A DNA stretch of 64,000 nt, taken from assembly GCF_024502345.1 (NCBI RefSeq), contig NZ_JALDNN010000001.1; one strand, written 5' to 3'. Made by a program: the position numbers and the translations under genes. Numbering within the stretch: position 1 is the stretch's first letter; each line of letters begins with the position of its first letter. Below the pieces are notes generated by a model that had not been told where the DNA came from, did not search any database, and saw only the letters and a list, made by a program, of their open reading frames with translations. The DNA comes from Escherichia coli (GTDB lineage: Bacteria; Pseudomonadota; Gammaproteobacteria; Enterobacterales; Enterobacteriaceae). Shown piece after piece: positions 20,443 through 27,852 of the stretch.

Positions 20443-21348
20443 ATGCGTCGAACGTTTATCAAAAAAGAAGGCGTCGTTATCACGACGCTGGCCCGTTATT
20501 TGTTGGGTGAAAAATGCGGTAATAGGTTGAAAACCATAGATGAGCTGGCAACTGAATGCCGTTCATCCGTTGGCCTGACGCAGGCCGCGTTGAAAACGCT
20601 GGAATCAAGCGGAGCGATACGGATTGAACGCCGTGGGCGCAATGGCAGTTATCTGGTCGAGATGGATAACAAAGCATTGCTGAGTCATGTGGATATCAAC
20701 AACGTGGTATGTGCGATGCCTTTGCCCTATACCCGCTTGTACGAAGGTTTAGCGAGCGGATTGAAAGCCCAGTTTGATGGCATTCCTTTTTACTATGCGC
20801 ATATGCGCGGCGCGGATATTCGCGTGGAGTGTTTACTTAACGGCGTGTATGACATGGCGGTGGTTTCCCGACTGGCGGCGGAAAGTTATCTCACGCAAAA
20901 AGGGTTTTGCCTCGCGCTGGAGTTGGGGCCGCACACCTACGTTGGCGAGCACCAGTTGATTTGCCGTAAAGGCGAGTCCGCAAACGTGAAGCGCGTGGGG
21001 CTGGATAACCGTTCGGCGGATCAGAAAATCATGACCGATGTTTTTTTTGGCGGTAGTGATGTGGAACGAGTCGATCTCTCTTATCACGAGAGTTTACAAC
21101 GCATTGTTAAAGGCGATGTCGATGCGGTGATCTGGAACGTGGTGGCGGAAAACGAACTGACCATGCTGGGATTAGAGGCGACGCCGCTCACAGACGATCC
21201 GCGATTTTTACAGGCCACCGAAGCCGTGGTCCTGACGCGAGTCGATGATTACCCAATGCAACAACTGCTGCGTGCCGTTGTAGATAAACACGCCCTGCTT
21301 GCCCATCAACAACGGGTGGTGAGTGGGGAACAGGAACCCAGTTATTAA
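20443..21348 (+). CDS. yhfZ: Putative transcriptional regulator YhfZ (N-terminal winged-HTH, C-terminal ligand-binding domain)
   Basis: 301-aa ORF; HTH-like segment TIDELATECRSSVGLTQAALKTLESSGAIRIERRGRNGSYLV. Confidence 0.85.
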   Translation: MRRTFIKKEGVVITTLARYLLGEKCGNRLKTIDELATECRSSVGLTQAALKTLESSGAIRIERRGRNGSYLVEMDNKALLSHVDINNVVCAMPLPYTRLYEGLASGLKAQFDGIPFYYAHMRGADIRVECLLNGVYDMAVVSRLAAESYLTQKGFCLALELGPHTYVGEHQLICRKGESANVKRVGLDNRSADQKIMTDVFFGGSDVERVDLSYHESLQRIVKGDVDAVIWNVVAENELTMLGLEATPLTDDPRFLQATEAVVLTRVDDYPMQQLLRAVVDKHALLAHQQRVVSGEQEPSY

Positions 21349-21364
21349 ACGAAAGGCATCTGAT

Positions 21365-21727
21365 ATGGAAACCAGACTCAACCTGCTTTGCGAGGCAGGC
21401 GTTATTGATAAGGACGTCTGCAAAGGCATGATGCAGGTCGTCAACGTACTGGAAAAAGAGTGCCATCTGCCGGTGCGCAGTGAGCAAGGAACGATGGCGA
21501 TGACACATATGGCGAGTGCACTGATGCGCAGTCGCCGTGGTGAAGAAATTGAGCCATTGGATAACGAGTTGCTGGCAGAACTGGCGCAATCCAGCCACTG
21601 GCAAGCCGTTGTGCAATTGCATCAGGTGTTGTTGAAGGAATTCGCACTGGAAGTTAACCCGTGTGAAGAAGGCTATTTGCTGGCCAACCTTTATGGATTA
21701 TGGATGGCTGCTAACGAAGAGGTTTGA
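21365..21727 (+). CDS. yhfY: PRD-domain protein YhfY
   Basis: ORF 21323..21727; start taken at ATG 21365 (METRLNLLCEAGVIDKD...), 120 aa. Confidence 0.8.
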   Translation: METRLNLLCEAGVIDKDVCKGMMQVVNVLEKECHLPVRSEQGTMAMTHMASALMRSRRGEEIEPLDNELLAELAQSSHWQAVVQLHQVLLKEFALEVNPCEEGYLLANLYGLWMAANEEV

Positions 21728-21757
21728 AGCTCCCGACAAATCCACGTCGCACAACCT

Positions 21758-21781
21758 AAATATTCAAAAAAATGAATATTT
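21758..21781. promoter_or_regulatory. Inverted repeat AAATATTCA-N6-TGAATATTT upstream of yhfX (candidate operator)
   Basis: Perfect 9-bp arms about 30 bp upstream of the yhfX ATG; shares TTCA...TGAA core with the yhfZ-upstream palindrome. Confidence 0.4.
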
Positions 21782-21810
21782 AATTCAAGGAACAGAAACG
21801 AGGCAACAAG

Positions 21811-25075: not shown

Positions 25076-25085
25076 GGACAGACTC

Positions 25086-25439
25086 ATGAAAAAGATTGGC
25101 GTTGCAGGCTTACAGCGTGAGCAGATTAAAAAAACCATTGAAGCGACGGCTCCTGGCAGTTTTGAAGTTTTCATTCACAACGACATGGAAGCGGCAATGA
25201 AAGTGAAATCCGGGCAACTGGATTACTACATCGGTGCGTGTAATACCGGTGCGGGCGCGGCATTGTCGATTGCCATCGCGGTGATTGGCTATAACAAAAG
25301 TTGCACCATTGCCAAACCAGGCATTAAAGCGAAAGACGAGCATATCGCCAAAATGATCGCTGAAGGAAAAGTGGCGTTTGGCCTTTCCGTTGAGCACGTC
25401 GAACACGCGATTCCGATGCTGATTAACCATCTGAAATAA
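25086..25439 (+). CDS. yhfU: Uncharacterised protein YhfU
   Basis: ORF 25047..25439; start at ATG 25086 (MKKIGVAGLQREQIKK...), 117 aa. Confidence 0.8.
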   Translation: MKKIGVAGLQREQIKKTIEATAPGSFEVFIHNDMEAAMKVKSGQLDYYIGACNTGAGAALSIAIAVIGYNKSCTIAKPGIKAKDEHIAKMIAEGKVAFGLSVEHVEHAIPMLINHLK

Positions 25440-25450
25440 AAGGCACGACT

Positions 25451-26755
25451 ATGGATCTGTATATTCAGATTATCGTGGTGGCGTGCCTGACGGGTATGAC
25501 ATCGCTTCTGGCGCATCGCTCGGCGGCTGTTTTTCATGACGGCATCCGCCCGATCCTGCCGCAACTGATTGAAGGCTATATGAACCGTCGCGAGGCGGGG
25601 AGTATCGCTTTTGGTCTGAGCATTGGTTTTGTGGCCTCGGTGGGGATCTCTTTTACCCTGAAAACCGGGCTGCTCAACGCATGGTTACTCTTTCTTCCTA
25701 CCGATATCCTCGGCGTACTGGCGATAAACAGCCTGATGGCGTTTGGTCTTGGCGCTATCTGGGGCGTGTTGATCCTTACTTGCCTGTTGCCAGTAAACCA
25801 GCTGCTGACCGCGCTGCCGGTGGATGTATTAGGTAGCCTCGGGGAATTAAGCTCGCCGGTGGTTTCTGCTTTTGCACTGTTCCCGCTGGTGGCGATTTTC
25901 TACCAGTTTGGCTGGAAGCAAAGTCTGGTCGCCGCCGTGGTTGTTCTGATGACCCGTGTGGTAGTCGTGCGCTATTTCCCACATCTTAACCCTGAATCCA
26001 TCGAAATCTTTATTGGCATGGTGATGCTGCTGGGGATCGCGATAACTCACGACCTGCGTCATCGTGATGAAAATGATATTGATGCCAGCGGGCTTTCGGT
26101 GTTTGAAGAACGCACGTCGCGGATTATCAAAAACTTACCCTATATCGCCATCGTGGGAGCATTGATTGCCGCCGTTGCCAGCATGAAGATTTTCGCCGGC
26201 AGTGAAGTGTCGATCTTCACTCTGGAGAAAGCGTACTCCGCAGGCGTAACGCCGGAACAATCGCAAACGCTGATCAACCAGGCGGCACTGGCAGAATTTA
26301 TGCGCGGGCTGGGTTTTGTACCGTTGATTGCCACCACCGCCTTAGCAACGGGTGTGTATGCAGTTGCGGGCTTTACCTTTGTTTATGCGGTGGGCTATCT
26401 CTCGCCGAATCCGATGGTTGCAGCGGTATTAGGCGCAGTGGTTATTTCGGCGGAAGTCTTGCTGCTTCGTTCGATCGGCAAATGGCTGGGACGCTACCCG
26501 TCGGTGCGTAATGCGTCGGATAACATCCGTAACGCCATGAATATGCTGATGGAAGTGGCGCTGCTGGTCGGTTCGATTTTCGCAGCAATTAAGATGGCGG
26601 GTTATACCGGATTCTCTATCGCGGTTGCCATTTACTTCCTCAACGAATCCCTGGGCCGTCCGGTACAGAAAATGGCGGCACCGGTCGTGGCAGTAATGAT
26701 CACCGGTATTCTGCTGAATGTTCTTTACTGGCTTGGCCTGTTCGTTCCGGCTTAA
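25451..26755 (+). CDS. yhfT: Polytopic inner-membrane protein YhfT (putative permease)
   Basis: 434-aa ORF, strongly hydrophobic with about 10-12 predicted TM segments. Confidence 0.88.
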   Translation: MDLYIQIIVVACLTGMTSLLAHRSAAVFHDGIRPILPQLIEGYMNRREAGSIAFGLSIGFVASVGISFTLKTGLLNAWLLFLPTDILGVLAINSLMAFGLGAIWGVLILTCLLPVNQLLTALPVDVLGSLGELSSPVVSAFALFPLVAIFYQFGWKQSLVAAVVVLMTRVVVVRYFPHLNPESIEIFIGMVMLLGIAITHDLRHRDENDIDASGLSVFEERTSRIIKNLPYIAIVGALIAAVASMKIFAGSEVSIFTLEKAYSAGVTPEQSQTLINQAALAEFMRGLGFVPLIATTALATGVYAVAGFTFVYAVGYLSPNPMVAAVLGAVVISAEVLLLRSIGKWLGRYPSVRNASDNIRNAMNMLMEVALLVGSIFAAIKMAGYTGFSIAVAIYFLNESLGRPVQKMAAPVVAVMITGILLNVLYWLGLFVPA

Positions 26756-26766
26756 GGAAGGCACCT

Positions 26767-27852
26767 ATGAAGACGTTTCCTCTGCAAAGCCTGACGATTA
26801 TTGAGGCGCAGCAAAAGCAGTTTGCGCTGGTGGATAGCATTTGTCGCCATTTCCCCGGCAGCGAGTTTCTTACTGGCGGTGATTTAGGCTTAACGCCAGG
26901 ACTGAATCAACCGCGCGTTACCCAGCGTGTGGAACAGGTGCTGGCTGATGCATTTCACGCACAGGCTGCGGCGCTGGTGCAGGGCGCGGGGACTGGCGCG
27001 ATTCGCGCCGGGCTGGCTGCTTTGCTCAAACCGGGGCAGCGTCTTCTGGTGCATGACGCGCCTGTTTACCCGACGACACGGGTTATTATTGAGCAGATGG
27101 GGCTGACGCTTATTACTGTTGATTTCAATGACCTGTCGGCACTGAAGCAGGTCGTCGACGAGCAACAACCGGATGCGGCGCTGGTGCAGCATACGCGCCA
27201 GCAGCCGCAGGACAGCTACGTGCTGGCAGATGTGCTGGCAACGTTGCGCGCGGCAGGTGTTCCAGCGTTAACCGATGACAACTATGCGGTGATGAAGGTG
27301 GCGCGAATCGGCTGTGAATGCGGCGCGAATGTCTCGACATTTTCCTGCTTCAAGCTATTTGGGCCAGAGGGTGTTGGTGCAGTGGTCGGCGATGCTGATG
27401 TTATCAACCGTATTCGCGCCACGCTTTACTCCGGCGGTAGCCAGATCCAGGGCGCACAGGCGCTGGAAGTATTGCGTGGGCTGGTGTTCGCGCCAGTGAT
27501 GCACGCGGTGCAGGCAGGGGTATCTGAACGGTTGCTGGCTTTGCTTAACGGTGGTGCGGTGCCGGAAGTGAAAAGCGCCGTCATTGCCAATGCGCAGTCG
27601 AAGGTGTTGATTGTCGAGTTTCATCAGCCGATTGCCGCCAGGGTGCTGGAAGAGGCGCAAAAGCGCGGTGCCTTGCCTTACCCAGTGGGTGCAGAGTCGA
27701 AATATGAAATCCCGCCGCTTTTTTATCGACTTTCCGGAACGTTCCGCCAGGCGAATCCGCAACTCGAACATTGTGCGATTCGCATTAACCCGAATCGCAG
27801 CGGTGAAGAGACGGTGCTGCGGATTTTGCGTGAGAGTATTGCGAGTATTTAA
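26767..27852 (+). CDS. yhfS: Uncharacterised PLP-dependent-transferase-like protein YhfS
   Basis: 361-aa ORF MKTFPLQSLTIIEAQQKQFALVDS... Confidence 0.85.
   Translation: MKTFPLQSLTIIEAQQKQFALVDSICRHFPGSEFLTGGDLGLTPGLNQPRVTQRVEQVLADAFHAQAAALVQGAGTGAIRAGLAALLKPGQRLLVHDAPVYPTTRVIIEQMGLTLITVDFNDLSALKQVVDEQQPDAALVQHTRQQPQDSYVLADVLATLRAAGVPALTDDNYAVMKVARIGCECGANVSTFSCFKLFGPEGVGAVVGDADVINRIRATLYSGGSQIQGAQALEVLRGLVFAPVMHAVQAGVSERLLALLNGGAVPEVKSAVIANAQSKVLIVEFHQPIAARVLEEAQKRGALPYPVGAESKYEIPPLFYRLSGTFRQANPQLEHCAIRINPNRSGEETVLRILRESIASI

Follow-up and report, generated by a model that had tools for sequence, protein, structure and literature searches.

In Salmonella, the dgaABCDEF operon encodes a D-glucosaminate permease of the phosphotransferase system (PTS), built as a mannose-family EIIABCD complex, along with the pyridoxal phosphate (PLP)-dependent ammonia-lyase DgaE and the aldolase DgaF, and has a sigma-54 activator. 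Another cluster, EF_0829/AHA_3910, is an orphan and groups a stand-alone PRD protein with unusual small and membrane proteins, an amidohydrolase and a PLP enzyme. Here we describe the eight-gene cluster yhfZ-yhfS of Escherichia coli, analyzed in a 64-kb stretch of genomic DNA (contig NZ_JALDNN010000001.1) that we call the window. We propose that the cluster is an inducible, PTS-linked catabolic module for a nitrogen-containing phospho-carbohydrate, a reading of its general mechanism that in our judgement falls just short of being probable. It would then resemble dga as a PTS-linked operon for an amino sugar acid, in which a PLP enzyme removes the amino group of a phosphorylated 2-amino-aldonate, the product enters central metabolism and a separate kinase is absent. 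However, dga has its own aldolase and the yhf module has none; instead, yhf combines a permease of odd fold and its RpiB-fold partner with a PRD protein, a winged helix-turn-helix repressor, a lactonase-family hydrolase and a phosphomutase. The resemblance to the EF_0829/AHA_3910 cluster extends to YhfY, which matches the PRD model of that cluster (TIGR03582) weakly, with 29 bits at a cutoff of 69. The membrane and small proteins of EF_0829/AHA_3910 belong to other families, and we detected no homology between them and YhfT or YhfU.

The genes of the cluster travel together across phyla. The YhfT family is small, with 305 representatives at 50% identity among 1.84 billion proteins, and a genome scan based on an alignment of 10 sequences and on one genome per species returned 80 loci. 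They span the Enterobacteriaceae, Yersinia, Ewingella, Vibrio, Photobacterium, Enterovibrio, Sebaldella, several Clostridia, Thalassobacillus and Melghirimyces. Gene content around yhfT was read by tblastn with the eight E. coli proteins; the presence counts of single genes cover 59 loci, the adjacency of yhfU and yhfT covers all 80 and the inspection of neighboring genes about 90. Almost everywhere the same genes surround yhfT but their order varies, from yhfZYXW-php-yhfUTS in Enterobacteriaceae to yhfZ-yhfY-php-yhfU-yhfT-yhfX-yhfW in Vibrionaceae and yhfZ-(yhfY)-yhfU-yhfT-php-(yhfS)-yhfX-yhfW in Firmicutes. yhfX was present in all 59 loci, yhfZ and php in 57 each, yhfW in 52, the PRD protein in at least 52 and yhfS in 25. 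Enterobacterales, Vibrionaceae, Sebaldella and many Firmicutes share a core of seven genes, yhfZ, yhfY, yhfX, yhfW, php, yhfU and yhfT, and core genes also cluster with YhfT homologs of only 27–32% identity. A first-pass annotation of this DNA had counted yhfS as a full member of the block, which is true of the window, but elsewhere the gene is an optional accessory. Reduced modules occur as well: several Yersinia (L034, L035, L039–L041, L044, L045) are devoid of yhfW and yhfS, and Enterovibrio (L058, L065, L066) retains only yhfU, yhfT, yhfX and yhfW, with the palindrome TTCA-N6-TGAA (see below) still standing about 220–230 nt upstream of yhfU. The irreducible gene set is yhfU, yhfT and yhfX.

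In the window, the eight genes are co-directional open reading frames on the plus strand, and the outer limits of the block fall exactly at 20443 and 27852. From yhfZ to yhfS, the junctions measure 16, 83, -1, -4, 10, 11 and 11 nt. The sole sizeable gap is that of 83 nt separating yhfX from yhfY, the other non-overlapping junctions being 10–16 nt long. This tight packing had been noted in the first-pass annotation, and so had the start-stop overlaps of yhfX/yhfW (1 nt) and yhfW/php (4 nt), the motif quoted for YhfW and the AHEHLH motif of Php, all of which we find in the open reading frames and their translations. The protein families that it had assigned also hold in searches of NCBIfam, Pfam and PDB sequences. 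YhfU had been listed as a small protein; its size was given correctly but the description was incomplete, as YhfU is an RpiB-fold protein. By megablast, the region is 97–98.7% identical to E. coli chromosomes that bear these gene names. Since no more than 3 of 5435 matching E. coli records attain 99% identity over the region, the window stems from an uncommon Escherichia lineage.

Within E. coli, the block is either present or cleanly absent. The yhfU-yhfT pair was found in 5075 of 5426 complete genomes (~94%). A synthetic chimeric junction of trpS, one repeat copy and frlR, used as query for the empty site, gave a contiguous match of ~99% identity in 342 E. coli genomes, and the eight genes therefore form one indel unit. 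The repeat in question is a 41-bp direct repeat of the boxC-like intergenic type, whose two copies, the only ones in the window, lie on either side of the cluster. Because the repeats flank the cluster exactly and the empty sites are clean, the whole 7.7-kb block is a repeat-bounded presence/absence polymorphism. Absent blocks were most likely lost through recombination between the 41-bp repeats; loss is favored over gain since the synteny of trpS and yhfZ occurs in other genera. Together with the co-travelling core, the clean polymorphism agrees with the earlier suggestion of a self-contained module of regulator, permease and enzymes. A palindromic element of the repetitive extragenic palindrome/bacterial interspersed mosaic element (REP/BIME) type lies between yhfS and frlR (27947–28006) and stays below threshold against the Rfam family naRNA4, with 30 bits versus a gathering score of 59.5. 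In front of yhfZ, a BIME is listed by a survey of attenuators (PMC2965389).

Downstream of the block, frlR and frlD of the fructoselysine (frl) operon are convergent to it. The first-pass annotation had taken this neighborhood as a clue to the substrate and suggested a gut-derived modified amino acid or sugar. Spelled out, this would be a pathway functionally allied to frl for a modified amino acid, for example an Amadori compound or a derivative of a D-amino acid or a basic amino acid. Gut bacteria often carry the cluster, as would be expected for such a nutrient. However, among the 80 loci, frlR lies beside the cluster only in the two E. coli loci whose sequence extends past yhfS, whereas in Klebsiella and Buttiauxella yhfS is followed by cysG and nirC. 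In addition, the 342 empty-site genomes have lost the module with frl untouched and retain frlR beside trpS. Membership of the cluster in the frl regulon, or a functional link to it, was rejected for want of conserved synteny and in view of these genomes, and the location next to frl does not serve as a substrate clue. The modified amino acid itself is taken up again below with the enzymes.

Strong purifying selection acts on each of the eight genes. In comparisons with Citrobacter, Klebsiella and Buttiauxella, the ratio of nonsynonymous to synonymous substitution rates (dN/dS) ranged from 0.035 to 0.11 in all cases that allowed an estimate of dS (it was saturated for yhfY versus Klebsiella and for php versus Buttiauxella), comparable to the 0.03–0.05 of the flanking essential gene trpS. 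This constraint bears on another explanation, namely that the block is a remnant in E. coli, cryptic or in decay, or serves a non-catabolic role such as salvage, detoxification or biosynthesis. Such a view would agree with the loss of the block in ~6% of E. coli, with its absence from the genome-reduced strain DGF-298 and with the open-access full-text literature that we searched, in which no inducing condition and no phenotype beyond multicopy suppression by php is reported. Yet the reading frames are intact, the operators and a CRP-like site are conserved, the core is kept across phyla, and a permease combined with a repressor and hydrolytic and PLP enzymes is a typical catabolic layout. Overall, we consider a remnant or a non-catabolic role very improbable.

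The regulator YhfZ matches the NCBIfam model YhfZ_full with 372 bits (cutoff 260) and HTH_41 with an E-value of 1.4e-18. Its helix-turn-helix resembles those of CodY and FadR, and the structure of its C-domain is available (PDB 2OZZ). By these matches, YhfZ can be classified as a regulator of the GntR type with a winged helix-turn-helix; in a knockout screen it has been named a 'putative transcription factor'. Its operator is probably the palindrome TTCA-N6-TGAA. In the 64 kb, the pattern TTCA-W6-TGAA has three matches (20397, 20421 and 21763), all in yhf promoter regions, compared to 0.02 expected from shuffled sequences. As the pattern was derived from these very sites, the shuffle count alone is post hoc and conservation constitutes the independent test. 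Throughout the Enterobacteriaceae, the palindrome TTCA-N6-TGAA is found at -46 and -22 of yhfZ. Most Vibrio and Photobacterium have it at -22 to -38, several Yersinia as well as Ewingella have it further out, at about -90 to -105, and Sebaldella has three copies, one of them 48 nt upstream of yhfZ. A copy also precedes yhfX, at ~-48, in Escherichia, Citrobacter, Klebsiella, Trabulsiella and others. The site upstream of yhfX, O3 (TAAATATTCAAAAAAATGAATATTTA), is nearly invariant in 10 aligned Enterobacteriaceae while its flanks diverge, and in the alignments the two yhfZ palindromes flank a -10-like GATATAAAT. At the Firmicute clusters, TTCA-N6-TGAA was not found. The spacers of the two yhfZ palindromes differ between the window (TTCATTTTAATGAA and TTCATTTTATTGAA, 20397–20434) and K-12 (TTCAAATTCCTGAA and TTCAATTTACTGAA, positions 6419–6456 of locus L001), with the TTCA and TGAA arms kept. 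Photobacterium carries a second yhfZ paralog, 48% identical, ~13 kb downstream of the first cluster and with TTCA-N6-TGAA 23 nt before its start (L059 20560–20583, L060 20599–20622), which hints at a second, related regulated locus that is cut by the end of the fetched DNA.

A CRP-like site, TGTGA-N6-TC(G/A)CC, is located ~75–90 nt upstream of the yhfZ start codon. Its TGTGA half is invariant in 11 aligned upstream regions of Enterobacteriaceae, and the second half-site reads TCGCC, TCTCC or TCACC in most of them. A scan for sigma-70 promoters returned sites no more numerous than in shuffled sequence, so promoter positions were taken from the alignments alone. We obtained no Rfam match above threshold and found no riboswitch or ribonucleic antiterminator (RAT) element, and the gap between yhfY and yhfX holds no terminator-like site. 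A model of antitermination in the style of BglG was therefore dropped. A published operon table lists php-yhfSTUWX as a single unit. We propose two transcription units, yhfZY and yhfXW-php-yhfUTS. YhfZ would be an autoregulated repressor at TTCA-N6-TGAA, where two sites overlap the presumed core promoter of yhfZ and one precedes yhfX, and would hold the genes off until an effector binds to its C-terminal domain. The conserved CRP-like site would add catabolite control by CRP activation, as is typical of catabolic operons. YhfY, in turn, would pass the phosphorylation state of the PTS into the YhfZ switch.

The case for YhfY as such a sensor comes from its relation to LicT. YhfY itself matches the Pfam PRD model with an E-value of 3.9e-4, and a profile of its orthologs matches both PRD1 and PRD2 of LicT (E 1.2e-7). 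The invariant His48, within T-H-x-A-x-A-x-x-R, aligns with His100/His207 of LicT, and at the second PRD site, aligned with His159/His269, most non-gammaproteobacterial members have a histidine. This register is confirmed by the structure of an activated LicT mutant (1H99), which has Asp at exactly these columns. From these alignments, YhfY is a genuine PRD with a predicted phosphorylatable histidine. It shares with the BglG/LicT-type regulators the signature of the PRD fold and the conserved histidine or histidines at these positions. However, YhfY is a single PRD of 120 residues devoid of a CAT RNA-binding or a DNA-binding domain, no terminator or RAT-like element was found, and a separate protein, YhfZ, would supply DNA binding. 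The cluster is genetically linked to PRD regulators and to the general PTS proteins Enzyme I (EI) and HPr: an HPr gene (GLHARPA motif) directly follows yhfW in the same direction in L074/L076 and L077, and an EI gene does so in L070. No sugar kinase occurs among the recurrent neighbors of the inspected loci, and small open reading frames of unknown nature near the cluster gave no family match.

If phosphoryl groups flow into the module, YhfU and YhfT are the proteins to be considered. In all 80 loci, yhfU lies directly upstream of yhfT regardless of the order of the remaining genes. Both proteins are also the most constrained of the block, being 94% identical to those of Citrobacter compared to 72–88% for the others, with a dN/dS of ~0.04. 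YhfU has a Rossmann-like, RpiB-like fold, but the closest RpiB chains have 148–158 residues and YhfU only 117. In RpiB, the Cys and Thr of the C-G-T-G loop are catalytic, an Asp-His is found near the N-terminus and the C-terminal part provides phosphate-binding arginines. YhfU shares with the RpiB/LacAB isomerases the fold and the Cys/Thr loop: its C-x-T/S-G-x-G loop, GAC(N/E)(T/S)G, aligns with iCGTG of RpiB, with an invariant Cys52 and either Thr or Ser at position 54. Unlike these isomerases, YhfU begins with MKKIGVAGLQ and has no Asp-His, is without the C-terminal helices and is genetically locked to a membrane protein. Neither the match to Pfam LacAB_rpiB (E 0.14) nor the phmmer match in the PDB (E ~0.4) was significant. 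YhfU is either a cysteine phosphocarrier or permease subunit, or a trimmed isomerase. Among 120 relatives listed, no fusion of the DUF2620 domain was seen besides evident read-through artefacts in E. coli. YhfT models confidently, yet has no counterpart among solved structures. The model does not place it in a known EIIC fold or superfamily, and the weak matches that it gave were elevator-type secondary carriers. An alignment of the N-terminal half of YhfT with its C-terminal half reveals a weak similarity (hhalign probability 69%, E 4.5e-5), which suggests a two-repeat architecture as in many carriers.

The same module could also operate without group translocation. YhfT would then be an ordinary secondary carrier, perhaps of a compound that is already phosphorylated, YhfU a cytosolic sugar-phosphate isomerase like RpiB, and the PTS would have a regulatory part alone, exerting catabolite control through YhfY. 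The weak matches of YhfT to elevator-type carriers and the lack of an EIIC-like fold and of an EIIA gene nearby would agree with this, YhfW and YhfU would mirror the pair of DeoB and RpiB, and a phosphatase of the Cof type, found as neighbor, suits sugar-phosphate intermediates. On the other hand, YhfU has lost the Asp-His and the C-terminal part of RpiB and has no significant match to that family, while the strict adjacency of yhfU and yhfT through all rearrangements and their equal constraint resemble a pair of transporter subunits. Moreover, dedicated copies of HPr and EI at the cluster suggest a phosphoryl flux beyond sensing, and no kinase is at hand to make phosphate esters. We therefore regard a module without translocation as possible but doubtful. 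The most specific form of our own proposal is that YhfT/YhfU represents a new type of PTS permease, with a non-EIIC fold, a cysteine phosphocarrier recruited from the RpiB fold and a split YhfY/YhfZ regulator in place of the common single-chain PRD regulators, that feeds a phosphorylated amino-sugar-acid-like nutrient into a lactonase/mutase/PLP pathway. We consider this form rather unlikely, as we do group translocation by YhfT/YhfU in itself.

The enzymes of the block indicate what kind of compound is processed. YhfX is of the Ala_racemase_N type (PDB 4KBX). Since alanine racemases, D-threonine aldolase and YggS are the only proteins within reach of its profile, chemistry at the α-carbon of an amino acid-like center is suggested; its best named match is a weak one to the ornithine racemase Orr. 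YhfS (PDB 4J8L) resembles γ- and β-lyases, with weak matches to methionine γ-lyase and O-succinylhomoserine sulfhydrylase. We did not retain YhfS as a DgaE-type lyase, as no DgaE model was among the 25 NCBIfam families listed. Both 4KBX and 4J8L were deposited as uncharacterized proteins. YhfW aligns over its full length with the phosphopentomutase of Bacillus cereus (PDB 3M8W), with a divergent cap domain and the conserved blocks DS.G.G, GxDTxxGH, D..GH..D, ADHGNDP and HTRE. We take these blocks to hold the metal (Mn) ligands and the Thr nucleophile (GGDTFMGH). Although YhfW shares the active-site blocks of the phosphopentomutase DeoB, it scores below the DeoB cutoffs (TIGR01696, 146 versus 341 bits; PRK05362, 183 versus 256 bits), passing only PRK12383 (740 bits, full length), and it stands in another operon context with no nucleoside phosphorylase nearby. 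YhfW is predicted to be a competent phosphomutase with a specificity other than that of DeoB.

Php (PDB 1BF6/4LEF) is described in the PDB only as 'phosphotriesterase homology protein'. It has the TIM-barrel, binuclear-metal fold and the HxH motif of the phosphotriesterase (PTE) family, which it shares with the phospho-sugar lactonases Lmo2620/Bh0225 and MS53_0025, the esterase Rsp3690 and PTER. However, Php scores far under the equivalog cutoffs for phospho-furanose lactonases (NF045706, 94 versus 630 bits) and organophosphate hydrolases (NF041153, 97 versus 500 bits) and, judged by these scores, appears roughly equidistant from both. A further point of likeness to these enzymes is that the suppressor phenotype of Php involves a phosphorylated hydroxy acid: overexpression of php rescues a pdxB deletion by a route that appears to form 2-oxo-3-hydroxy-4-phosphobutanoate, in a study that describes Php as of unknown function (PMC3010111). 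PTER, a mammalian relative of Php, acts as amidohydrolase on N-acetyltaurine (PMC11374699), so that the substrate of Php could be an ester, a lactone or an amide.

Accessory genes adjoin the module at some loci. A NagB-type deaminase is found in L073 and L075 and a Cof-type sugar phosphatase in L087/88; Sebaldella has an amidase, and further neighbors are a protein with weak similarity to shikimate dehydrogenase and three ATP-grasp genes. The Sebaldella gene, with an amidase signature (GSSSG motif), lies between yhfT and yhfS (L057 11347–12375). An AFDB entry from Clostridium citroniae (G5HJH7, 768 residues) is annotated as amidase-domain-containing, and a part of the length of YhfT matches the YhfT model. 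Because an amidase thus lies next to YhfT or is fused with it, some lineages may import the substrate in an amide-linked form. The three ATP-grasp genes are consecutive and follow a divergent PRD-DUF2620-YhfT-PTE-YhfS-YhfX cluster in one genome (L082 11815–16353).

Several of these features could be claimed for the modified amino acid mentioned above: the ornithine racemase as best named match of YhfX, the likeness of YhfS to lyases of Cys/Met metabolism, the amidase neighbors and fusions and the ATP-grasp genes. However, a phosphomutase, an RpiB fold, a lactonase-family hydrolase and the NagB and phosphatase accessories indicate a carbohydrate skeleton, and yhfS is missing from most lineages. 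In view of this and of the restriction of the frl neighborhood to Escherichia, a pathway for a gut-derived modified amino acid is in our opinion quite improbable. The more general idea of the first-pass annotation, a catabolic pathway for a phosphorylated or amino-containing substrate, fares better, as the enzyme set points to a substrate with both features. Enzyme classes and accessory neighbors together favor a nitrogen-bearing carbohydrate that is handled as phosphate ester.

From the enzyme classes found, we infer the substrate and the order of steps in the proposed PTS-linked pathway. YhfT, a permease of a fold absent from solved structures, would import the substrate together with its obligate neighbor YhfU. 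On entry or just after it, the substrate would be phosphorylated via a PTS-type relay that runs from EI to HPr and onward to Cys52 of YhfU. Such a relay would explain the absence of a kinase beside enzymes whose relatives act on phosphate esters. Php would open a lactone, cyclic ester or amide; for an amino-aldonate, this would mean opening the ring or removing an acyl group. YhfW would reposition the phosphate, and YhfX, aided by YhfS where present, would deaminate, epimerize or cleave by retro-aldol reaction at the amino-bearing carbon (C2). YhfU, if it is an enzyme, would isomerize the resulting aldose phosphate. The products, a sugar phosphate and/or a 2-oxo acid, would enter central metabolism. 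As for the substrate class, our best suggestion is a 2-amino-2-deoxy-aldonate, its lactone or another amino-sugar derivative of this kind, derived from chitin or from the host, although it is unlikely to be correct at this level of detail. The distribution of the cluster would fit such a nutrient: its carriers are enterics and Firmicutes of the gut, Vibrionaceae associated with chitin, and symbionts from the guts of termites and bees.

A number of points weigh against this proposal. No EIIA-like gene was found among the recurrent and inspected neighbors at ~90 loci, where supply in trans is possible, and the adjacency of HPr or EI genes is limited to three Firmicute lineages. In Gammaproteobacteria, including E. 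coli, the second PRD histidine of YhfY is replaced by Asn. Furthermore, the composition of the pathway is not fixed, as is evident from the several Yersinia without yhfW and from Enterovibrio without php and yhfZ. The substrate class is drawn from family chemistry and scattered accessory genes. D-Glucosaminate itself was set aside as substrate; to our knowledge, E. coli K-12 does not grow on it.

The coordinates of the genes and of the regulatory and boundary elements are collected in Table 1. For yhfY, the mechanically derived open reading frame begins at a GTG at 21323, upstream of the assigned start.

Table 1. Genes, repeats and putative control elements of the yhf block in the window.
Feature	Position	Strand	Description
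Left 41-bp direct repeat	20192–20232	+	Identical to the right copy; bounds the module
Terminator-like hairpin and T-run after trpS	20300–20321	+	From terminator scan; upstream boundary of the yhf units
CRP-like site TGTGA-N6-TCGCC	20352–20367	+	Upstream of the yhfZ promoter; CRP binding presumed
O1 palindrome TTCATTTTAATGAA	20397–20410	.	46 nt before the yhfZ ATG; putative operator
O2 palindrome TTCATTTTATTGAA	20421–20434	.	22 nt before the yhfZ ATG; flanks, with O1, a -10-like GATATAAA
yhfZ	20443–21348	+	301 aa; HTH_41 winged helix-turn-helix and YhfZ_C ligand-binding-type domain; proposed repressor at O1–O3
yhfY	21365–21727	+	120 aa; stand-alone PRD protein with predicted phosphorylatable His48
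O3 26-bp palindrome TAAATATTCAAAAAAATGAATATTTA	21757–21782	.	29–54 nt before the yhfX ATG; putative operator
yhfX	21811–22974	+	387 aa; fold-type III PLP enzyme of racemase / D-amino-acid aldolase / dehydratase type
yhfW	22974–24200	+	408 aa; phosphopentomutase-like phosphomutase of the alkaline-phosphatase superfamily
php	24197–25075	+	292 aa; binuclear-metal amidohydrolase of the PTE/lactonase family
yhfU	25086–25439	+	117 aa; DUF2620, RpiB/LacAB-like fold, invariant Cys52, Thr/Ser54
yhfT	25451–26755	+	434 aa; PF10797 polytopic membrane protein, presumed permease
yhfS	26767–27852	+	361 aa; fold-type I PLP enzyme, Cys/Met-metabolism-like; optional accessory
Right 41-bp direct repeat	27899–27939	+	Identical to the left copy; bounds the module

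The first-pass annotation had singled out this cluster as a candidate for undescribed biology with no assigned substrate. Indeed, the open-access full-text literature assigns it no substrate, operator or inducing condition (a report in a subscription journal is possible). The cluster itself, however, is already known: it has long been annotated in E. coli, and four of its proteins have crystal structures. The novelty therefore lies in the mechanism. New aspects are the seven-gene core with an optional yhfS, the Escherichia-specific frl neighborhood, the candidate operator, the fold of YhfU, the link to the PTS and the repeat-bounded polymorphism. In kind, the system would be a repressor- and CRP-controlled, PTS-linked catabolic operon, with an unusual permease fold, an RpiB-fold partner and a regulator split into PRD and winged helix-turn-helix proteins.

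The yhf block is among the largest intact operons of E. coli to which no function is assigned, and it is also found in Yersinia, Vibrio and many Firmicutes of the gut. Its role did not emerge from the four crystal structures. The candidate operator, the repressor predicted to act on it and a PTS hypothesis that names YhfU Cys52 and YhfY His48 make this 'y-gene' problem testable. If the PTS reading is true, the cluster would add a new permease architecture to a system that was thought to be fully catalogued. If it is false, YhfT would still represent a new transporter family with an obligate RpiB-fold partner, and the cluster an unrecognized nutrient niche of gut and marine bacteria.

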